IMG/VR virus record: IMGVR_UViG_3300049740_000832
Reading direction: 5' to 3' (one strand)
Source of the DNA: a virus
DNA length: 64,000 nucleotides
The notes under the pieces are model-generated. The model was not told the DNA's origin and did not search any database. It saw only the letters and a program-made list of their open reading frames with translations. Of the stretch, positions 12,736 to 23,372 are shown piece after piece (within the stretch, counting starts at the first letter, position 1; every line of letters starts with the position of its first letter). Position numbers and translations under genes: made by a program.

Positions 12736-13173
12736 ATGATTAGATTTATTACATTATTTGTGGCGTTAGTATTCACTACGCCAGCATATGCAGAAGAAAC
12801 AATTGTTGAAATGTTGAATAAACGAGACGATGGCGCTCGTATGGTATATTCAGAAGATGTTACATACATCAATGCAGGCGACACAATCAAATGGTTGCCG
12901 ACTGATAAAGGTCATAATGTTGAGTTTATTGCAGGGCCAGAAGGTTATGAATTACCCAAACGTTCTAAGTTCAACAAAGAAGTCTCATTGACATTCGATG
13001 TGCCGGGCGTATATTTGTATCAATGCACACCTCATAAGGGTATGGGTATGATTGCACTTGTTGTTGTTGGTAATGATACATCGAATTTGGCACAAGTTGC
13101 GGCGACTAAAGTATTTGGTGGTAGTAAGAAGAAGTTACAAACTCTTGCTGCTGGAGTATCTTTAGGTAAATAA
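12736..13173 (+). CDS. Pseudoazurin (type-1 blue copper protein), exported
   Basis: Signal peptide; GHNV and YQCTPH.GMGM copper ligands. Confidence 0.88.
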   Translation: MIRFITLFVALVFTTPAYAEETIVEMLNKRDDGARMVYSEDVTYINAGDTIKWLPTDKGHNVEFIAGPEGYELPKRSKFNKEVSLTFDVPGVYLYQCTPHKGMGMIALVVVGNDTSNLAQVAATKVFGGSKKKLQTLAAGVSLGK

Positions 13174-13590: not shown

Positions 13591-13667
13591 CGGGGTTTAG
13601 CACAGTCTGGTAGTGCGCTCGCTTTGGGAGCGAGAGGTCGGAAGTTCGAATCTTCCAACCCCGACCA
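13591..13667 (+). tRNA. tRNA-Pro(UGG)
   Basis: Full cloverleaf; anticodon TGG at 13625-13627; TTCGAAT T-loop; encoded CCA. Confidence 0.96.
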
Positions 13668-13688: not shown

Positions 13689-14717
13689 ATGAAAGTAAGA
13701 ACTCTAAAAAACAACGCAGTCGAAGCTTATGACTTTGATATCTACTCTGACGAGAATATCGCAGACTTGGGTAGACTTGTCGCGAATGAGTCTGTCGTTC
13801 TGGTAGACCAGAAACTAGACCAGAAGAGAACCTATGATGTTCAGATGCAGTGGGGTAGTCCCGCACACTCAATCGTTCACCTTGCCACATCGGTAGGGAC
13901 AATGAAGGGTGTTCATTGGAATAGTCTTCGACTGAATATTCTTAACGGTTCATCAGAGATTGAACCAGACTATCGCAACACCATGTCGGTTGTTACCTAT
14001 CAGAGAAATAAGAAAGGTAGACCGAAGGGTGTTTTTGCGAATGGCATATTGGGTTGGCACAGTGACCAAGTTGCCCTCAATGATGGAGACCGTATCATTG
14101 GTTTGGTTTCGGTTGAACATACCGAAGGGTCACAGACTGCATTTCTTTGCACCAAAGAAGCATATAACAAACTGAATCACGAAGACAGAACGATGGTTGA
14201 TGAACTCCAGAGTGTGTATCGTTGGAACAGAAAAAACTTTACGGGTAATCTGATTGACGAACAGAAACAGATGGTCAGATATAATCAAGTCCCTGTCGAT
14301 GGTATGATGTGTAAACTACAACAGTCAACACCGTCTGGTGTGAAGGGTATTCACTTCCCTGGCACTCTCTTCCATAAGTTCGATGGTATGACCGAAGAAG
14401 AAAGTCTGAAGTTCAAGGAATATCTCTGGGAGAAAATCAATCGGCCTGAATACATCTACACTCACGACTGGAAGGACGGTCAGGTTGTCTACATGGAACA
14501 GAACATCACTCTACACGCCCGTCCAACCGATATCATAGATGGTAATATGCGTAAGTTGTGGCGTAATATTTCATATATGGACAAACTATATTCAGGCGAG
14601 GGTCACAAAGATGAGTATACGGTGGACGGTAAAGTAATGGACGGTTCTGAATTCTTAACTTTGGTTGATGATATTCGAAGAGAAGAGTATGAGTCTGGAA
14701 GAAAAATTGCTGTCTAA
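13689..14717 (+). CDS. TauD/TfdA-family dioxygenase
   Basis: GWHSD, HDW..G.V...Q...TLHAR. Confidence 0.8.
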
Positions 14718-15150
14718 CATCGATACTCTTCTAACAGACTATCGTGTAGTAAAAGACAAATCAAAGAGAATACCAAATAAAGAACAGAACTCGTTTGGTA
14801 AGGGATGGGATACTGTCATACTAAAATACGGTAGACCTTCTAAAATCAGTTATCTGATACCAAATACTTTTGAACTATTATTAGATGAGAGAATACGAGC
14901 CGCGCACTTTATAACTCTCTATCCTAAATCGTTTGTTCCCGCCAACACAAAAATCAAATACTATGATGATGCAGTGGTTCATCATATACCTTTGATTATT
15001 CCAGAAGGTGAAACTGGAATGATATTTTCAGATAATTATGAACTCAAGAAGTGGAAGATGGGTGAAACACTCACCTATGATGGAAGTAGAACATATGCGG
15101 GGTATAACTTTACTGACGAGGAACGAGTTATACTTCATATAGTTCAATAG
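14689..15150 (+). CDS. Asp/Asn beta-hydroxylase-like protein, metal ligands degenerate
   Basis: HIPLIIP..W..G....D......N.TDEERVIL scaffold, but HxD and the distal His are absent. Confidence 0.55.
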   Translation: MSLEEKLLSNIDTLLTDYRVVKDKSKRIPNKEQNSFGKGWDTVILKYGRPSKISYLIPNTFELLLDERIRAAHFITLYPKSFVPANTKIKYYDDAVVHHIPLIIPEGETGMIFSDNYELKKWKMGETLTYDGSRTYAGYNFTDEERVILHIVQ

Positions 15151-15177: not shown

Positions 15178-15208
15178 GAGACGCCCACGGTTAGCGTCTC
15201 ATTTTTTT
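15178..15208 (+). terminator. Intrinsic terminator
   Basis: GAGACGC-9nt loop-GCGTCTC followed by A and T7. Confidence 0.75.
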
Positions 15209-15229: not shown

Positions 15230-15237
15230 TATAAATA
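15230..15237 (+). promoter_or_regulatory. T4-type late promoter heading the csg/FecR/cyclase operon
   Basis: TATAAATA followed by a GAGGT RBS. Confidence 0.75.
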
Positions 15238-15253
15238 GGCATGAGGTAAGTAA

Positions 15254-15535
15254 ATGGAACAAGTGTTCACAATCATTGCTGAACTGGGTTTCCCTATTGC
15301 TGCCGCCTTAATTGGTGGTTTTTTTATGTTTCTGACCCTACGATATATCATGGATGGTGTTATCGGTCAGGTGAAGGGAATACACGGTATCGTATCAGCA
15401 CTCGATAATCGAGTAAAGACGATGAATCATGACCTGATTCGTCTCGATACAACTATGTGTGTCGTTTTAGGAATAAGACCAGACCTGAATCGTATCTCCC
15501 GCGCAGACGGTAAAAACGATGCGAGGAGAGACTGA
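15254..15535 (+). CDS. Small membrane protein (GFPI motif, YvrJ/holin-like)
   Basis: ELGFPIAAA, one TM, coiled-coil tail. Confidence 0.6.
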   Translation: MEQVFTIIAELGFPIAAALIGGFFMFLTLRYIMDGVIGQVKGIHGIVSALDNRVKTMNHDLIRLDTTMCVVLGIRPDLNRISRADGKNDARRD

Positions 15536-15783
15536 TGGATGTTATAACCGCAATTAAAGATTTCGGTTTTCCTATTGTAGCGGCGGTTGGTATGTTGTAT
15601 ATGATTTATTTCGTCTGGAAAACAATTACAGAGAAGATTGAAGTCTTTCTATCTGAAACTCAAACTACACTGGTTGGTTTGATTGACCGTGTTCGTATGT
15701 TGGACAATGATATCATTCGTCTACAACAAAAACTTGATACAGCGATTGAAGTAAAGAGAAGAGAAGATGAATCAAAAGAATAG
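15535..15783 (+). CDS. Small membrane protein, paralogue of the upstream gene
   Basis: DFGFPIVAA; DRVRMLDNDIIRL versus NRVKTMNHDLIRL. Confidence 0.6.
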   Translation: MDVITAIKDFGFPIVAAVGMLYMIYFVWKTITEKIEVFLSETQTTLVGLIDRVRMLDNDIIRLQQKLDTAIEVKRREDESKE

Positions 15784-16294
15784 AGATATGTTTCGTAAAT
15801 CTATTGGGCCAAATATCTGGTCAGGAGCAGATTTATGGAAAGCATTTATCGTTGGCGTAGTGGTTGGTATAATAGTGTTCTGGACAACAGATGCGATAGG
15901 CGCACCAATCGAATACAGTTTCAAGTCGCCATCATTCAATGGTGTCAATCAGTCATCACACTATCTGACGATTGAGAATCAAGAAACATCACGCAAAGAA
16001 GCAATAAAACAAGAATTAGAAGACTTACAAAAACAATTAGAACGAGACGCAAAGAATACGACACTTGCTAAGTTTATACGAAATGTAGAAAGTCGAATTT
16101 ACTCTACACTGTCCAGACAACTTGTGGAAGAGATGTTCGGTGAGAACCCATCAGATTCAGGTGAATTTGAGATTGAAGGCGCGGGTATCTCATATGTAAA
16201 AGATGATTTAGAAAACGAAGTGGAGTTAACGGTAACTGATGAAGATGGTAGCCAGACTGTCATTGTTATTCCTATCGGCGATTTTGGTTTCTAG
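15767..16294 (+). CDS. csgF: Curli assembly protein CsgF-like
   Basis: Hydrophobic leader then YSFKSPSFNG.N...LTIENQ and F.RN.ESRI...LSRQL; directly upstream of csgG. Confidence 0.75.
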   Translation: MNQKNRDMFRKSIGPNIWSGADLWKAFIVGVVVGIIVFWTTDAIGAPIEYSFKSPSFNGVNQSSHYLTIENQETSRKEAIKQELEDLQKQLERDAKNTTLAKFIRNVESRIYSTLSRQLVEEMFGENPSDSGEFEIEGAGISYVKDDLENEVELTVTDEDGSQTVIVIPIGDFGF

Positions 16295-17042
16295 TTGCAC
16301 GACCCACAAATGGGATGTCCCCTCGCAACCAGAATCAGCAAAAGTTCAAGTGGCTCTTCTGACAGAAGAATTACAGAATATTGAACCTCCGATACGAAGA
16401 CCAACGGTGGCGTTATATGCGTTCACCGACCAAACAGGACAGAAGAAACAAAACGCAAACGGCGGAACATCATTTAGTTCTGCGGTTACCCAAGCACCAG
16501 AAGTTTATCTGATTCGTGCTTTGACTCGTGCGGCTAACGGTCAGTTCTTTAAGGTGGTTGATAGGTCTGCACTAGATTGGTTAACGAGAGAGAGACAACT
16601 CATAAGACAGACACGAAGTTCTTATGAAGGTGATGGTGCAAAAAAATTACCGGCATTGACCTTTGCTGGTATGATAATTGCAGGCGGTATAGTAGGATAT
16701 GACCACTCTACCGAAAGCGGAGGTGCGGGTGCGAGATATCTCGGCATCGGCTCTTCCAGAGAGTTTAGTCGTGACACAGTGACAATCAACATGAGGTTGA
16801 TAAGTGTTGCGACTGGCGAGGTTTTACTTGATGTCATAACAAGTAAGACCATACTATCTGTCGCGTTTGGCGGAGACGTATTTCGTTATGTGGAACAGGG
16901 CACTCGACTCGTTGAGATTGAGTCTGGGACTGCCCGAAACGAAAGCGTTTCGATTGCCACTCAACGAGCGATTGAAACAGGTGTCTTAGAACTTATAAAA
17001 CTCGGAAATAGAAAAAAGTTCTGGACATTCAAAGGAGAGTAA
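16245..17042 (+). CDS. csgG: Curli secretion channel lipoprotein CsgG
   Basis: Lipobox VSSC; FTDQTGQ.K, FSSAVTQ, LTRERQLIR, GGIVGYD, GGAGARYLGIG. Confidence 0.9.
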   Translation: MVARLSLLFLSAILVSSCTTHKWDVPSQPESAKVQVALLTEELQNIEPPIRRPTVALYAFTDQTGQKKQNANGGTSFSSAVTQAPEVYLIRALTRAANGQFFKVVDRSALDWLTRERQLIRQTRSSYEGDGAKKLPALTFAGMIIAGGIVGYDHSTESGGAGARYLGIGSSREFSRDTVTINMRLISVATGEVLLDVITSKTILSVAFGGDVFRYVEQGTRLVEIESGTARNESVSIATQRAIETGVLELIKLGNRKKFWTFKGE

Positions 17043-17043
17043 G

Positions 17044-17781
17044 ATGAACACTTTACAAAGAATTTTTGTGATGTTGTTCCTAGTAAACGCAGGGACATCG
17101 CCCGTATGGGCTGATAATGCGGTCTACATTGACCAAGTAGGGTCAGGTGTAGATATCGATGTTACTCAAGACGGTAGTGGAAACACAATTAGTAACAATG
17201 CTAATGACACAACCAAAATGAAGGTTGATGGCGATGACATCAATTTGAGTATCGATACCGTTGGTGATACCAACAAAGTTCTTGGTGCTATTATAGGTGA
17301 CAACAGTGATGTTGATTTAGACATCGATGGCGACACCAATACAGTCACAATCGACATTGATGGAACTGACACCTATGGTGCTGGTAACGGCAATGTGGTA
17401 ATCGATTTGGACGGCGGTAATAACACACTGGACTTGAGCATTGGTAACAACGACCAAGCAACGGGCGCAGATGTTGACTGGATTGTTGACGGTGACTATA
17501 ACAGTGTAACTGCTGATATTGACATCAACAACGCAACAAATAGCATTGACTTCGCTGGAGACAATGTAACAATCGATTATGATGGTGACGGATATGATGG
17601 TCACTCTGTAACAATCGATGGCGTTGGAACAACAAACTACTGGGATATTCAAATAGACCAACAGTCAACGTTACAGTCTGATACATTGAGCATTGAAATC
17701 GAGGGTTCAGGTGACACGACTACAGATAATACCTTATGTGTTTCTCAGTCTGATTCTGGCACCGCTACCGGCTGTCAGTAA
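17044..17781 (+). CDS. Curlin-like secreted beta-repeat protein
   Basis: Signal peptide; NAVYIDQVG and IDVTQDGSGN, then ~22-aa D/N/G-rich repeats (I.G..N); terminal Cys pair. Confidence 0.7.
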   Translation: MNTLQRIFVMLFLVNAGTSPVWADNAVYIDQVGSGVDIDVTQDGSGNTISNNANDTTKMKVDGDDINLSIDTVGDTNKVLGAIIGDNSDVDLDIDGDTNTVTIDIDGTDTYGAGNGNVVIDLDGGNNTLDLSIGNNDQATGADVDWIVDGDYNSVTADIDINNATNSIDFAGDNVTIDYDGDGYDGHSVTIDGVGTTNYWDIQIDQQSTLQSDTLSIEIEGSGDTTTDNTLCVSQSDSGTATGCQ

Positions 17782-18817
17782 GGATGTCGGTCTCATAGAC
17801 CGTGCAGTCGGCTGGAGACAAGTAGTTAGAGACACAAATGAAATCGAACCTGAAAAGGGGTTTGATATAATAGCAAAAGACGACCTTCGCACAGGCGAGG
17901 GGCGTATGCAAGTGAAGTTCGTTGATGATTCGAAACTTCGCATGACCGAACACACACGCATTGTGATTGACAATGTGGTGTTTGATGATGACCCAAGTAA
18001 GTCTGACCTTGCAATGACATTCGCGCAGGGAACTGCTCGTTTCATTACGGGTAAACTTGGGACGATTGAGAAAGAGAATATTAGATTGAGAACACCGACT
18101 GCCTCAATCGGTATTCGCGGCACAGACTTTACTGTGACCGTAGACGAGTTTGGTCGCACACTTGTAGTATTATTACCTGATGTGAATGGTATATCATCGG
18201 GTGAGATTATTGTTTCGACAATGACTGGTGAGGTAGTGTTGAACAAACCGTTTCAATCCACCACAACCTCTGTGACTGAGGCGCCTCCCAGCAATCCTGC
18301 CATTCTAGACTTGACTCTAGATATGTTGGATAATATCTTGATTATCAATCCACCCAAAGAGAGAATGACAGAACAAGAGTTCTATACGTCTGTGGACAGT
18401 CGTAAGAATATCAATCCTCTTGATATTGACTTTCTCGATGAACAACTATTAGATAACGAGGAGTTTGAACGTGACTATCTGGAATTTACTGAACTTGATA
18501 TCAATTTCCTTGATGTGGAACTCCTCGAAAACCTATTAGATAGTTACTCTGACCTAGATGCAGAATTGTTGAAAGAGAAAGAGGATAAGAGTGATACTGT
18601 CGTAGAAGGGACGAGTGAGGGCTTTGACACGGTGACTCAAATCAGCACCGTTGTTGAGGGCGATAAGATTACGATGATTCGTAATGTTCAATCTATCGTG
18701 GAGATATCTGTTTCGAACAGCGAAGAGACATCTATAAATCTAGATGTTGATGGAAAGGAACTTGACCCCATTACGGTCAATGGTGGCGGTAATACCACTA
18801 TAAGTATTAAACAATGA
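17711..18817 (+). CDS. Exported FecR-domain protein with acidic C-terminal region
   Basis: D.LRTG.GR..V.F.D.S......T, G.ARF..G, RTPTASIGIRGTDF; GTG start after GAGGG. Confidence 0.8.
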   Translation: MTRLQIIPYVFLSLILAPLPAVSKDVGLIDRAVGWRQVVRDTNEIEPEKGFDIIAKDDLRTGEGRMQVKFVDDSKLRMTEHTRIVIDNVVFDDDPSKSDLAMTFAQGTARFITGKLGTIEKENIRLRTPTASIGIRGTDFTVTVDEFGRTLVVLLPDVNGISSGEIIVSTMTGEVVLNKPFQSTTTSVTEAPPSNPAILDLTLDMLDNILIINPPKERMTEQEFYTSVDSRKNINPLDIDFLDEQLLDNEEFERDYLEFTELDINFLDVELLENLLDSYSDLDAELLKEKEDKSDTVVEGTSEGFDTVTQISTVVEGDKITMIRNVQSIVEISVSNSEETSINLDVDGKELDPITVNGGGNTTISIKQ

Positions 18818-20646
18818 AAACATGGCATGTCCTTATTACACTGGGGTTGATGATAACCCTGAGACTGCTCGACCCCTTTCTCCTTGAAAGTGCGAGACTG
18901 TCTTTCTTTGACTCGATGCAAAGAGGACAGGAATCAAAACAATCTGAACAGATTGTCCTTATTGATATTGACGAATCGACCCTAGAGAAGTTCGGTCAGT
19001 ATCCAATCCCCCGCGAAACAATGGCAGACGAGTTGGCAAAACTTGGCAATCAGTCAGTGTTAGGTATCAATATCTTATTATCAGAACCAGACAGGTTCGG
19101 AGGGGATGACGCATTTTCAAATATGTTGTTTGAAATGGAAGCGGTAATTGCTATTGCACCAAGCGATAAGACAAACACAGACTCCCGACCAACACCTGTA
19201 GGTGTGGCAACATTCGGTGACCGCGATGCGGTAGAGTTTCGACCTGAACTAGATGGGATGTTATTTGCACTACCTGACTTCATGACAACTGCAATGGGTC
19301 ATGGAACAATCTCTGCAACACAGGATATCGATGGTATCACACGGAGAGTTCCTCTGATTGAGAACTTCGAGGGTCGCATGTATCCTGCCTTTGCACTGGA
19401 TATCCTTCGCGTGGCTGCGGGTGACATATCATATCAAATCAAGACAGACGATTACGGAATACGATTTGTTCGCATACCGAAGTTTGATGTAGTGCAGACA
19501 GACGATAATAGTAATGTGCGTATCGCATTCTGGAATGAGTTCAAGAGATATTCTTTCACAGAGATAGACCAGATACCAAGCGGAAGTATTGCGATACTGG
19601 GTGCGACCTTTAAGGGGACATCTGTCGTATCAACTCCTGTCGGTGCGATGTATCCGCATGACATTCAGGCGAACCTGTTGAAGACGATGATTGATGGTGT
19701 GACTATCATACGGATGCCAGAGTTCAAGTTTTATGAACTTTTCGCAACGATTTTAGTGTCAATAATGATACTATTCATGTTATCTAAACTCTCTATCGTC
19801 ATTTCGGGGGTATTTTTCCTGATTATCAGTTCAAGTTTCGTGAATGGTGCATCACTGATATTCGACAATACCTTTATGCTTCTTGACCCCATTTTCCCTG
19901 TTATAACATTTGTTATAATCTTTGCACATGGTTCGTTTGTCCAGTTCTATACACAATTCAAAGCGAAACAAATGATTAAGGGTCAGTTCGGAACGTATCT
20001 AAGTCCTGACATGGTTGACATGCTTGCTAACGACCCGTCACTGATGAAACTGGGCGGTGAACGCAAAGAGATGACATTCTTGTTCATGGACATCTGTGGA
20101 TTCACCCCGATATCAGAACACTACAAAAACAACGATGACCCCGAAGGATTAGTTAATCTAATCAACGAATACCTGAACGAGATGACCAACATCATTCTAC
20201 ACAACGGTGGAACTATAGATAAGTATATGGGCGATTGTATTATGGCGTTTTGGAACGCCCCTCTACCATGTGAGAATCATGCAGAGATGGCAGTGAAGTC
20301 TGCTATCGAGATAGAGGAGAAGACAAATGAACTTAAAAAGAAATATGAGTCTCGCGGTCTCCCGCCTATTAATGTGGGGACTGGCATTAATACTGGCGAT
20401 TGTATTGTTGGAAACATGGGCTCTGAAAGCAGATTCGACTATTCGGTCATTGGAGATGCCGTCAACCTTGCCGCAAGACTCGAAGCGACTGCCGCAAGAG
20501 AAGACTATGTTGATTTCAAAACAATCTATTCCAGTCACACAATGGAACAACTCACCGATATCAAGTCAAGACCTATAGGTAAAATCAAGGTCAAGGGTAA
20601 AGATGAATTGATTGAGATATACACACATGATACAGATAATCGATAA
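18814..20646 (+). CDS. CHASE2-domain class III adenylate cyclase
   Basis: IVLIDIDE...FGQYPIPR and DIDGITRR (CHASE2); three TMs after CHASE2; FMDICGF, DKYMGDCIMAFW, GDAVNLAARLE. Confidence 0.93.
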   Translation: MKTWHVLITLGLMITLRLLDPFLLESARLSFFDSMQRGQESKQSEQIVLIDIDESTLEKFGQYPIPRETMADELAKLGNQSVLGINILLSEPDRFGGDDAFSNMLFEMEAVIAIAPSDKTNTDSRPTPVGVATFGDRDAVEFRPELDGMLFALPDFMTTAMGHGTISATQDIDGITRRVPLIENFEGRMYPAFALDILRVAAGDISYQIKTDDYGIRFVRIPKFDVVQTDDNSNVRIAFWNEFKRYSFTEIDQIPSGSIAILGATFKGTSVVSTPVGAMYPHDIQANLLKTMIDGVTIIRMPEFKFYELFATILVSIMILFMLSKLSIVISGVFFLIISSSFVNGASLIFDNTFMLLDPIFPVITFVIIFAHGSFVQFYTQFKAKQMIKGQFGTYLSPDMVDMLANDPSLMKLGGERKEMTFLFMDICGFTPISEHYKNNDDPEGLVNLINEYLNEMTNIILHNGGTIDKYMGDCIMAFWNAPLPCENHAEMAVKSAIEIEEKTNELKKKYESRGLPPINVGTGINTGDCIVGNMGSESRFDYSVIGDAVNLAARLEATAAREDYVDFKTIYSSHTMEQLTDIKSRPIGKIKVKGKDELIEIYTHDTDNR

Positions 20647-21118
20647 TTTCCTAGATGAAGAACTCTGGGATGAACTGATTGAAGACTATCATCGATGTCG
20701 TATGTATAGTGCATATGAATATGGTGAGAGACTAGGCAGTGAGTATTATAGAGTTCAGTCTTGGGTGGGGTGTTATCGTAGTGATAATCTGACAGACATT
20801 TATTCAGAAGTGACAGAGAAAATAAAAGGCGAACTGGGTATTGAAGTTCAAAAGATGACCTTCTTCAAACATCCTAAAGAGAGTTTTCCCGAACCGATGA
20901 CATACGGCATGAATATTCCTCAACACATCGATGCGAATTTCGAAAGGTCGGGGGTTCTCTACATGGTAGGAAAAGAAGGTATGGGGACAACTATCAAGGA
21001 TGAATATGTAGAGTGGCAACCAAATCGTGCAATTGCATTTGACGCACAGACTTATCATAATCCAAACTTTGGTGGAAAAGATAGGATTTCTTTAACTTTT
21101 TTTGGAAAAAAGACTTGA
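20627..21118 (+). CDS. Small 2OG-Fe(II) oxygenase-like protein
   Basis: IIDNFL..QHID..SGVLY..GT..PNR..FD...H...R. Confidence 0.65.
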   Translation: MIQIIDNFLDEELWDELIEDYHRCRMYSAYEYGERLGSEYYRVQSWVGCYRSDNLTDIYSEVTEKIKGELGIEVQKMTFFKHPKESFPEPMTYGMNIPQHIDANFERSGVLYMVGKEGMGTTIKDEYVEWQPNRAIAFDAQTYHNPNFGGKDRISLTFFGKKT

Positions 21119-21143
21119 CATTTTATTCTTGTTGTGATAATAT
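21115..21143 (+). promoter_or_regulatory. sigma70-type promoter
   Basis: A-tract then TTGACA-17nt-TAATAT with extended -10 TG; AAGGAG RBS downstream. Confidence 0.75.
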
Positions 21144-21177
21144 AAGAACATAATCACAAACTAGAAGGAGATTGATT

Positions 21178-22128
21178 ATGGCACATGCAGTAGAAACAAT
21201 GGCGTATGCGGGAGAAGTTCCGTGGCACGGACTTGGTGTTCCTGTATCGAATGACCTGACTCCCCGTCAGATGATGGATAAGGCTGGTCTGGACTGGACG
21301 GTTGAGAAGGAAGACCTTGTAACATCGTCTGGCGCAACAGTGGAAGGCAAACAAGCACTTGTGCGTTCCTCTGACAACAAGGTTCTGGATGTCATCGGTA
21401 AAGGATGGAATCCTGTTCAGAATGAAGAAGCATTTGAGTTCTTCTCTGAGTATGTCCTTGCGGGTGACATGGAAATGCACACCGCTGGTTCACTCAAAGA
21501 CGGTAACATGGTGTGGGGTCTTGCAAAGGTGAAAGATACCTTTGATATTCTTGGTGGTGACCAAGTTGACTCATATCTCTTGTTTTCCAATCCACACCAG
21601 TATGGTAAGTCAATCGACATTCGGTTCACACCGATTCGTGTAGTGTGCAATAACACATTGTCACTCTCACTTGGTCAGAAGGTTGCAAACTCGGTGTCTC
21701 TGAACCACCGCACTACATTCAATCCTGACTCAGTAAAAGAGACTTTGGGTATTGCATCTGAAAAGTTTGCACAATACAAAGAGACCGCAGAGTTTCTTTC
21801 ATCCAAACGTTTTGGTATTAGCGAATTGATTCAATACTACAACGAAGTATTCCCTCGCACCTATCAAGGTAAGAAGGAAGTCAATGTCAAGACTGTTGGA
21901 GACCTGACTACCAATGCTCAAAAAGCATACGAGGTTCTGGAAACTCAGCCTGGCGCAGAGTTCGGTGAAGGAACATGGTGGCAGGCACTGAACAGTGTGA
22001 CCTACCTGACCGACCACCAGATGGGTCGTGAGGCAGACACACGTTTGACTTCTGCATGGTTTGGTTCAAACCAGACACGCAAAGTCCGTGCTGTAGAAAA
22101 AGCGGTGGAGTATGCACTCGCCGCTTAA
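21178..22128 (+). CDS. DUF932/DUF945 family protein
   Basis: PWHGLG, AGLDWTV, PVQN.EAF, TAGSL, TPIRVVCNNTL, GTWW.ALN.VT. Confidence 0.85.
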   Translation: MAHAVETMAYAGEVPWHGLGVPVSNDLTPRQMMDKAGLDWTVEKEDLVTSSGATVEGKQALVRSSDNKVLDVIGKGWNPVQNEEAFEFFSEYVLAGDMEMHTAGSLKDGNMVWGLAKVKDTFDILGGDQVDSYLLFSNPHQYGKSIDIRFTPIRVVCNNTLSLSLGQKVANSVSLNHRTTFNPDSVKETLGIASEKFAQYKETAEFLSSKRFGISELIQYYNEVFPRTYQGKKEVNVKTVGDLTTNAQKAYEVLETQPGAEFGEGTWWQALNSVTYLTDHQMGREADTRLTSAWFGSNQTRKVRAVEKAVEYALAA

Positions 22129-22756
22129 AAATATCAAAGTCTTGGGAGAGGTTGACGTAATCACTTACGTCAATCTCTTTTCAAATATCGATGATAGAGA
22201 TTGGATGGGTGAATTCAATAAATTCACTAAACATTATATTCCAGGCTTCCAAGAACTTGAAATACTCCCTATGTTATATTCTCTCAAGAAGACACATGTA
22301 ACTAAATTTAGAGACGATTATACTGTTGAGGAAGCCGCAAGTAATTGGTCGATTGATAACGCAGTGGACTATAGAACAGGCGGTGGTCTTGGCGAAGATT
22401 ATGTTACCTTGAAAGGTAGGTTGTATGAAAAGTTTTATGATGAAAGATTACTGACCGATATAAAAAAATTACTATCCGATAAATTCGGTGACGGAACAAT
22501 CAGTATGTTTTTGTTAAACCTTATGAATCCACATTCAAATATTGAACCACATGTTGATGATACAACAGGAAACAAAAGGCGTATACACATACCACTCGTA
22601 ACACACCCTGATATTAAATTTCGTAACGGTAATGATGAGATACATATGGAAGTTGGTAAGGTTTATTTGTTTGACCATGAAAAAGAACACTCAGTCATAA
22701 ATCCAACAGATTATGAACGTATTCATCTGATAATGGATTGGAGACCAAATGATTAA
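22112..22756 (+). CDS. Asp/Asn beta-hydroxylase-like oxygenase
   Basis: IEPHVD..RIHIPL..H.EVG..H...N....RIHLI.D. Confidence 0.75.
   Translation: MHSPLKNIKVLGEVDVITYVNLFSNIDDRDWMGEFNKFTKHYIPGFQELEILPMLYSLKKTHVTKFRDDYTVEEAASNWSIDNAVDYRTGGGLGEDYVTLKGRLYEKFYDERLLTDIKKLLSDKFGDGTISMFLLNLMNPHSNIEPHVDDTTGNKRRIHIPLVTHPDIKFRNGNDEIHMEVGKVYLFDHEKEHSVINPTDYERIHLIMDWRPND
22147..22182 (+). terminator. Terminator-like hairpin inside the next CDS
   Basis: 14-bp stem AGAGGTTGACGTAA/TTACGTCAATCTCT with one G-U, TCAC loop, short T run. Confidence 0.6.
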
Positions 22757-23372
22757 AGTTCTTGGTGAAGTTGATGTAAGTTATTATATTAATCTCTTCT
22801 CTAATATTGATGATGCAGACTGGATAGATGAATTTTCAAAATTCAGTAAAAAATATATTCCTTTCTTTCGAGAATTGGATAGACTGCCACTTTTGTTAAA
22901 TATGAGAAAAGACTATGAAAATAACTATGAAAGTATTGAAGAGATTATTACTACTTCAGACGTTGGTAATAATCATGATGTTGTTGAGTTTCTAAATGAA
23001 GGCGACTTAAATGATGACATAACCATTAAAGGCAAATTCTACGAAAAATATTACAACAAAAAGTTTTTCGATGAACTTTTCGAAGTTGTCAGAAATGAGT
23101 TCGGTGATGGACAATGTATGACATTGATTTTTAATTTAATGAATCCTCACTCTAGGATTTATCCACACGCAGACGAGAGAACTGGTAATAAGAAACGTAT
23201 ACATATTCCTATCATTACACATCCTGATATTAAGTTTCGTAACGGTAATGATGAGATACATATGGAAGTTGGTAAAGTATACAAAATAGAACATTCTATA
23301 GAACACTCTGTTGATAATCCGACAGATTGTGAACGTATTCATTTAGTGATTGATTGGAAGATTAATGATTAA
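22749..23372 (+). CDS. Asp/Asn beta-hydroxylase-like oxygenase, tandem paralogue
   Basis: IYPHAD..RIHIPI; 41-bp exact DNA match with the upstream gene. Confidence 0.75.
   Translation: MIKVLGEVDVSYYINLFSNIDDADWIDEFSKFSKKYIPFFRELDRLPLLLNMRKDYENNYESIEEIITTSDVGNNHDVVEFLNEGDLNDDITIKGKFYEKYYNKKFFDELFEVVRNEFGDGQCMTLIFNLMNPHSRIYPHADERTGNKKRIHIPIITHPDIKFRNGNDEIHMEVGKVYKIEHSIEHSVDNPTDCERIHLVIDWKIND

Follow-up and report, generated by a model that had tools for sequence, protein, structure and literature searches.

The locus described here raises the question of why a marine phage would carry genes of the curli secretion apparatus in one row with a FecR-domain gene and an adenylate cyclase gene. It lies in the IMG/VR virus record IMGVR_UViG_3300049740_000832, of which a stretch of 64,000 nucleotides, hereafter the window, was analysed. 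Every long open reading frame (ORF) of the window is on the + strand, and the T4-type replication proteins encoded in it, which are a gp43-like DNA polymerase, a DnaB-like helicase and a ribonucleotide reductase, indicate that it is part of a T4-like marine myophage. The + strand region from 15254 to 20646 is occupied by a cluster of seven genes, which encode two small membrane proteins (sm1 and sm2), CsgF, CsgG, a curlin-like protein, a FecR-domain protein and a CHASE2 adenylate cyclase.

The identity of these parts and their joint conservation are solid. By a narrow measure, we lean towards the explanation that one late operon combines a curli apparatus of alphaproteobacterial type with a FecR/CHASE2 cyclase, which would report the state of the envelope or of export by means of cyclic AMP (cAMP). 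This leaning applies to the explanation as a whole, including the reading of the cluster as a single late operon. The coupling of the two halves and the cAMP output are what we infer, and sensing across the envelope, as put forward in an earlier reading of this DNA (the original prediction), is plausible, not proven.

The gene cluster itself is already known. Wittmers et al. (2022, mSystems; PMC9599517) reported the cluster in full from pelagiphages of the Podoviridae and Myoviridae, as one or two 'histidine kinase' genes, CsgF, CsgG, CsgA/B, FecR, frequently another CsgA/B, and the adenylate cyclase; they presented trees, an alphaproteobacterial origin and transfer between viral families, and the cluster was present at all 65 GOV2.0 stations. 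Zaragoza-Solas et al. (2020; PMC7029224) and Buchholz et al. (2022; PMC9004378) dealt only with csgF/csgG and their neighbours, and mention neither the cyclase nor FecR. The novelty that the original prediction implied for the cluster is therefore lost, since the 2022 paper already covers the whole set with FecR and the cyclase. What goes beyond PMC9599517, in which CHASE2, promoters and Caulobacterales loci are not mentioned, is the conservation of the gene order, the block in Caulobacterales, the joint reading of CHASE2 and FecR, the lack of support for the 'HK' (histidine kinase) label and the absence of a cyclic nucleotide monophosphate (cNMP)-binding domain.

Gene order and its conservation

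All seven ORFs are present on the + strand, overlapping or abutting as originally described, and their junctions from sm1 to the cyclase gene measure -1, -17, -56, +1, -89 and -4 nt (Table 1). The identities given to the CsgF, CsgG, curlin-like, FecR and cyclase proteins were upheld by Pfam, structure and family matches. CsgE and CsgD, which had been said to be missing, were indeed not recognised among the seven ORFs, and neither was CsgC.

A cyclase-anchored scan of IMG/VR, with at least 594 contigs, showed the order sm1-sm2-csgF-csgG-curlin-fecR-cyclase in every viral locus whose upstream DNA was long enough, and this order was kept across cyclase identities from 45 to 97%. When the scan was anchored on CsgG, 52 of 79 loci were complete, and nearly all others end at a contig edge. 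The joint conservation of FecR and the cyclase with csgFG, on which the original prediction depended, was found in every myophage-type locus with enough flanking sequence and in three bacterial loci, and the synteny survey located the csgF-csgG-curlin-fecR-cyclase block in viral and Caulobacterales genomes.

Annotations of Pelagibacter phage HTVC008M and Methylophilales phage Melnitz show this block as well. The cluster of the window shares its gene set and order with this viral type VIII secretion system of the pelagiphages, and its proteins are 31-51% identical to those of the two phages. It differs in one gene: in HTVC008M, Melnitz and most relatives, fecR and the cyclase gene are separated by a second curlin-like gene, which the clade of the window has lost.

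Table 1. Features of the cluster and of the region directly upstream of it (positions in the window).
Feature	Position	Strand	Evidence and remarks
Terminator-like hairpin	15178..15208	+	GAGACGC / 9-nt loop / GCGUCUC, then A-U7; stem-loop 15178-15200
TATAAATA, T4-type late promoter motif	15230..15237	+	16 nt 5' of the sm1 ATG
sm1, predicted 93-amino acid (aa) bitopic membrane protein	15254..15535	+	phrog_18771, 1e-31; N-terminal transmembrane segment, C-terminal coil
sm2, 82-aa paralog of sm1	15535..15783	+	phrog_18771, 7.6e-24
CsgF homolog with N-terminal signal/anchor	15767..16294	+	PF10614, 3.6e-13
CsgG outer-membrane lipoprotein pore	16239..17042	+	PF03783, 2.3e-45
Secreted acidic curlin-fold (CsgA/B-like) beta-solenoid subunit	17044..17781	+	AlphaFold2 model, PDB structure scan
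Secreted FecR-domain protein	17693..18817	+	PF04773, 1.1e-11
CHASE2 receptor adenylate cyclase	18814..20646	+	PF05226, 1.2e-31; PF00211, 1.2e-19

Late promoter motif and expression

Motifs of the TATAAATA type are late promoters of the T4 type. The window contains 10 copies of TATAAATA against 2.9 expected, nine of them on the + (coding) strand. In 34 of 52 related viral loci an exact copy occurs at most 150 nt 5' of sm1, mostly 12-16 nt before the start. The late promoter proposed for the cluster is supported by the copy 16 nt ahead of the sm1 ATG, by the enrichment in the window and by its retention upstream of the related loci.

The upstream hairpin and the U7 tract fold as predicted and would end the upstream transcript, but the fold (-18.6 kcal/mol) has only a modest advantage over shuffled sequences (z -1.74). 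Several related loci have a similar GC stem and T-run 5' of the promoter motif. All cluster genes were reported to be expressed in Pacific metatranscriptomes (PMC9599517).

Curli proteins

The CsgF match to PF10614 covers profile positions 17-132 of 132. After the signal sequence, CsgF presents the motif F-K-[NS]-P-S-F-x-G, which is invariant or nearly so in 54 family members (F52, P55 and F57 in all 54) and which we take to be the constriction peptide that is inserted in the CsgG barrel in E. coli. A phmmer search with CsgF against PDB sequences found no CsgF. In CsgG, residues 10-264 of 267 align with the E. coli CsgG structures 3x2r and 6l7a (1e-37); its N-terminus ends in a lipobox-like ...LVSSC, with a conservation of at least 90% across the family for the Cys.

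The D/N/G-rich curlin-like protein begins with a signal-peptide-like stretch, and its mature part contains 19% Asp, with a net charge of -42; G-x-x-N and Q positions are invariant. Its match to Curlin_rpt is sub-threshold (15.4 bits against a cut-off of 20.7, E 0.018), and a bacterial homolog (L084:7356-8036) is above the cut-off, with 25.5 bits. The AlphaFold2 (AF2) model (predicted local distance difference test, pLDDT, 81; predicted template modelling score, pTM, 0.79) is a regular beta solenoid with two strands per turn and regular strand pairs. Compared with 48,161 PDB representatives in VIA-align, it had Pontibacter CsgA (8c50_A, Z 19.4) as its top match, about 4 Z units above generic beta-helices, and a Foldseek search of the model against PDB gave no significant match. 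The model points to a CsgA/B-type subunit by fold, which is borderline by sequence. The original prediction had placed a sensing circuit in the position of simple curli export; this preference is not borne out. The predicted fold is CsgA-like, so fibre export stays the default reading.

The likeness to E. coli curli lies in the near full-length alignment of CsgG, in the CsgF family match with its N-terminal motif, and in the CsgA-like predicted solenoid. The window differs from it by the lack of CsgE, CsgC and CsgD, by a single, very acidic and Gln-poor subunit, and by curli genes that stand under a phage late promoter motif and have FecR and a cyclase linked to them.

CHASE2 adenylate cyclase

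In the cyclase, the CHASE2 domain (PF05226) spans residues 10-315 and the Guanylate_cyc domain (PF00211) residues 418-600. Hydrophobic segments at 6-24, 312-330 and 353-371 predict a first transmembrane segment, a periplasmic CHASE2 domain, a transmembrane cluster (~312-371) and a cytoplasmic class III catalytic domain. The protein was also aligned to Cya2-derived cyclases, and its best alignment is with P. aeruginosa CyaB (3r5g), with which D426, K470, D474, D542, N551 and R555 align. Each of these catalytic positions is kept in 81 to 83 of 83 phage sequences, down to 45% identity, so the metal-binding Asp residues, the ATP-specifying Lys and the catalytic N/R pair are intact, as had been claimed. 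The K/D adenine pair indicates cAMP as the predicted product, and not the pyrimidine products of Pycsar. A Pycsar-like reading for the phage was rejected, given the purine-type K/D pair and no adjacent effector; neither a PycTM nor a cNMP-binding gene was found among the seven cluster genes and the six neighbouring window ORFs scanned.

FecR-domain protein and its pairing with CHASE2

The FecR-domain protein consists, in the AF2 model, of a signal peptide-like N-terminus, a FecR beta domain (~33-192), an acidic low-confidence linker and a C-terminal beta domain (~303-373). In Foldseek, the FecR beta domain matched the periplasmic domains of the anti-sigma regulators BDI_1681 (4m0h) and PupR (6ovk), with E from 3e-5 to 8e-5; a phmmer search of the protein against PDB sequences returned nothing useful. 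A weak Foldseek match of the C-terminal beta domain to the 'cell surface anchoring domain' of PDB 5ix9 (E 0.02, target TM 0.71) is an additional observation.

Only the signal-peptide-like N-terminus precedes the FecR domain, so the protein has no cytoplasmic anti-sigma part, and neither a sigma factor nor a TonB-dependent receptor occurs among the seven cluster genes. A role as an anti-sigma factor or iron regulator was rejected on these grounds. This differs from PMC9599517, where FecR is an iron regulator and the small upstream genes are called histidine kinases; here no kinase domain was seen and FecR is paired with CHASE2. That the curlin-like and FecR proteins have 'I-x-I-x-Q' in common at their C-termini was also considered as a sign of homology, which was rejected (hhalign probability 0.9%).

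The pair recurs in bacteria. A FecR gene lies directly upstream of stand-alone CHASE2 cyclase genes, on the same strand, in Thalassospira, Curvivirga, Rhizobium, a Myxococcaceae assembly and other genomes, and the stand-alone cyclase relatives are 31-38% identical to the cluster cyclase. FecR was found within 2.5 kb of 10 of 76 stand-alone CHASE2 cyclases and within 6.5 kb of 20 of them. The FecR density beside these cyclases is about 2.3 times that of more distant flanks, which makes the pairing recurrent, not universal.

In S. meliloti, the FecR-domain gene smc02177 presumably adjoins cyaD1, to judge by the locus tags. The cAMP regulator Clr has this gene among its targets (PMC5498481). A LysM-FecR protein ('BiofilmReg') stands beside a CHASE2 histidine kinase in Burkholderia/Burkholderiales, and a related pair occurs in P. 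aeruginosa PAO1 (PMC5192318). What the cluster has in common with these bacterial pairs is a gene for a secreted FecR-domain protein beside the gene for a membrane sensor whose CHASE2 domain is periplasmic; in S. meliloti, cAMP is the output. In addition, the S. meliloti outer-membrane barrel NsrA relays a protein signal to the CHASE2 cyclases CyaD1, CyaD2 and CyaK, leading to cAMP (PMC13001267), and therefore the idea of a trans-envelope relay has a precedent. By analogy with the recurrent bacterial pair, the phage FecR protein is probably a periplasmic sensor partner of CHASE2, and not an iron regulator.

Bacterial counterparts and probable origin of the block

A search of species-representative bacterial genomes revealed three chromosomal loci with contiguous csgF-csgG-curlin(s)-fecR-cyclase genes, without sm1/sm2, known only from metagenome-assembled genomes (MAGs): two of Caulobacteraceae and one of Henriciella, all in the Caulobacterales (L084/L322, L342 and L085). 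The flanks of L084 and L085 contain housekeeping genes and TonB-dependent receptor genes. The five families have the same order as in the window, and the cyclase is 38-41% identical to that of the window. The bacterial loci differ by the lack of sm1/sm2, by two adjacent curlin genes in the two Caulobacteraceae loci and by a cyclase about 80 residues longer. Many MAG matches that do carry sm1/sm2 (e.g. L164, L168, L170, L174, L178 and L203) were rejected as bacterial, being phage contigs binned into MAGs.

The gene directly after the CHASE2 cyclase in the Caulobacteraceae copy (L084:12482-13075) encodes a PycTM domain (PF18967, 8.8e-25), and the Henriciella copy presents an unannotated 223-aa ORF at the same position.

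A FastTree phylogeny of 48 cyclases (48 rows, SH-like support, midpoint root) grouped L084, L085 and the phage cyclases in one clade with 100% support, with L084 and L085 as sister to all phage ones. Together with the contiguous block in Caulobacterales, this grouping suggests that the block was most likely captured whole, once, from an alphaproteobacterium, and was kept afterwards under purifying selection.

Small membrane proteins sm1 and sm2

The proteins sm1 and sm2 are paralogs (24% identity in BLASTP, E 3e-8; phrog_18771 common to both), and each has one N-terminal hydrophobic helix, which in sm1 is the transmembrane segment at 11-29. Pfam gave nothing for either, even with the E limit relaxed to 10. 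The sm2 protein weakly matches the holin phrog_4898 (E 0.005), with no single stretch passing alone. The nearest named Atlas cluster to the small proteins is YvrJ, at 0.89, which is a lead only.

Among cultured phages, small paralogs of the sm1 type were found only in HTVC008M and Melnitz, beside the cluster. They are absent from the bacterial chromosomal versions, and sm1 and sm2 are thus specific to the phage version of the cluster. The small upstream genes were labelled 'HK' in PMC9599517. For sm1 and sm2 this label is unsupported, since proteins of 93 and 82 aa have no HisKA/HATPase core and gave no Pfam match up to E 10.

Proposed function and alternative explanations

In the explanation towards which we lean, CsgG, CsgF, the curlin-like subunit and the FecR protein would be exported by the Sec pathway late in infection. 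CsgG and CsgF would form a channel in the outer membrane, through which the acidic solenoid subunit would be secreted to assemble on the surface of the infected cell. The FecR-domain protein would partner the CHASE2 domain in the periplasm, and possibly also the periplasmic face of CsgG, so that the cAMP output of the cyclase would be set by the envelope's state or by that of fibre export.

Several observations weigh against this explanation. Three viral loci with room for the whole cluster (L267, L272 and L288) keep FecR and have no cyclase, and cyclase-less viral variants are also stated in PMC9599517; therefore the curli half can be selected without a cAMP output. In L267 and L272 there is no cyclase within more than 6 kb. 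L288:2788-5598 contains FecR and a second curlin-like gene, without a cyclase, followed by a 162-aa ORF and a phage lysozyme gene (PF00959, 4e-48). The assembly of amyloid fibres by the curlin-like protein is uncertain because the protein is extremely acidic, with the net charge given above, and Gln-poor. Ordinary curli loci (Rhizobium, Hyphomonas, Henriciella, Bacteroidota) have no FecR or cyclase nearby, and 66 of the 76 stand-alone CHASE2 cyclases lack a FecR gene at up to 2.5 kb, so that the coupling of the curli half to the FecR-cyclase half would be a matter of synteny only. The direction of transfer is likewise not proven by a midpoint-rooted FastTree phylogeny.

The receiver of the would-be signal is a further difficulty. 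A search for the cNMP-binding domain PF00027 in HTVC008M, Melnitz and three long IMG/VR relatives gave no match. PF00027 was also not found in any of the 38 genomes of one SAR11 genus, that of a Pelagibacter MAG, in which no class III cyclase was found either, nor in 181 of the 201 Pelagibacteraceae genomes searched, which are samples, many of them incomplete. Some marine Alphaproteobacteria with a CHASE2 cyclase of their own do carry cNMP-binding domains. Since canonical cNMP-binding domains were not seen in the related phages or in most SAR11 genomes searched, no canonical path by which cAMP would reach gene expression can be seen for the known hosts, which leaves the putative signal without a known receiver.

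An unlikely alternative is that the cluster makes plain curli, which would let cells aggregate ('sibling capture') or shield them from superinfection, with FecR and the cyclase only regulating expression, like cAMP-CRP and CsgD in E. coli (PMC9599517, PMC7029224). The complete alpha-type set of curli genes agrees with it, as do the world-wide distribution and the expression of the cluster and the existence of cyclase-less variants. Against it, the cluster has its own conserved late promoter motif and no CsgD- or CRP-type receiver was found in five related phage genomes; therefore transcriptional control by cAMP has no visible route. The cyclase is moreover a periplasm-facing CHASE2 receptor, the FecR protein is without an anti-sigma part, and Melnitz cultures showed no clumping (PMC9004378). 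Quite unlikely, in our estimate, is that the two halves are independent, the cyclase flooding the cell with cAMP or draining its ATP (to reprogramme host metabolism or to disturb a nucleotide-based defence of the host) and the CsgG/CsgF pore importing cofactors or iron compounds, an import idea raised in PMC9599517. The strong constraint on the catalytic residues would fit such an enzyme, and the PycTM gene after the L084 cyclase hints at a link to cyclic-nucleotide effectors for this cyclase clade. A gene order kept at 45-97% cyclase identity and in three bacterial genomes is hard to explain in this way, however; an enzyme for constitutive flooding would not need a large periplasmic sensor domain, and the K/D pair indicates cAMP in place of Pycsar pyrimidine products.

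Still more doubtful is a role in lysis timing, as argued from structure models and synteny by Buchholz et al. 2022 (PMC9004378), in which CsgG/CsgF would be a gated outer-membrane secretin or 'pinholin', sm1 and sm2 would be holin/antiholin-like and the cyclase would tune the breach of the envelope. The late transcription of the operon, the weak match of sm2 to a holin PHROG (0.005) and the lysozyme gene within one gene of the cluster in the L288 variant speak for it; next to the cluster of the window, a lysozyme gene was not found. Against it, CsgG is located in the outer membrane and holins act at the inner one, ordinary secretion is indicated by the curlin-fold substrate and by the conserved CsgF motif, the block in bacterial chromosomes has the same genes with no lysis context, and neither sm1 nor sm2 matches a holin family significantly. 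The least likely of the readings considered is a self-contained trans-envelope receptor in hosts without cAMP signalling. The fibre would be its antenna, FecR would couple the CsgG/CsgF pore to the cyclase, and cAMP would act on a non-canonical phage target, possibly sm1/sm2, to delay or trigger lysis on cell contact or superinfection. If true, this would be a trans-envelope receptor functionally analogous to T4 lysis inhibition, built of bacterial curli and cyclase parts.

Neighbouring genes

Upstream of the cluster region, the window encodes a copper protein of the plastocyanin/azurin family with a signal peptide (12736-13173; PF00127, 3e-15) and a tRNA-Pro(UGG) at 13591-13667. Paralogs of PF05118 (aspartyl/asparaginyl beta-hydroxylase-like) are present on both sides of the cluster, at 14665-15150 (6e-11), 20612-21118 (a weak match, 0.031), 22112-22756 (2.5e-16) and 22749-23372 (5e-13). 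As a secreted protein made up of roughly 19% Asp and 10% Asn, the curlin-like protein might serve as a substrate of these flanking hydroxylase-like proteins. The adjacency of PF05118 genes to the cluster is kept only inside the window's own clade.

A good match to a sigma-70-like promoter (TTGACA, 17 nt, TAATAT, and a TG upstream) occurs at 21115-21143, and 3' of it is a DUF932 gene at 21172-22128 (PF06067, 6e-40). This match suggests that the late transcript of the cluster may end, or be joined by that of another promoter, about 500 nt past the cyclase gene.

Significance

The hosts of such phages count among the ocean's most abundant bacteria. The cluster takes about 4% of a genome of roughly 140 kb and occurs at every global ocean virome station examined (PMC9599517), so it plainly pays its way. 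Most SAR11 genomes searched are without a canonical cAMP receiver, which raises the question of what a second messenger made by the virus addresses. The joint reading of CHASE2 and FecR, and the block found in Caulobacterales, turn a vague annotation of 'curli plus regulators' into testable proposals.

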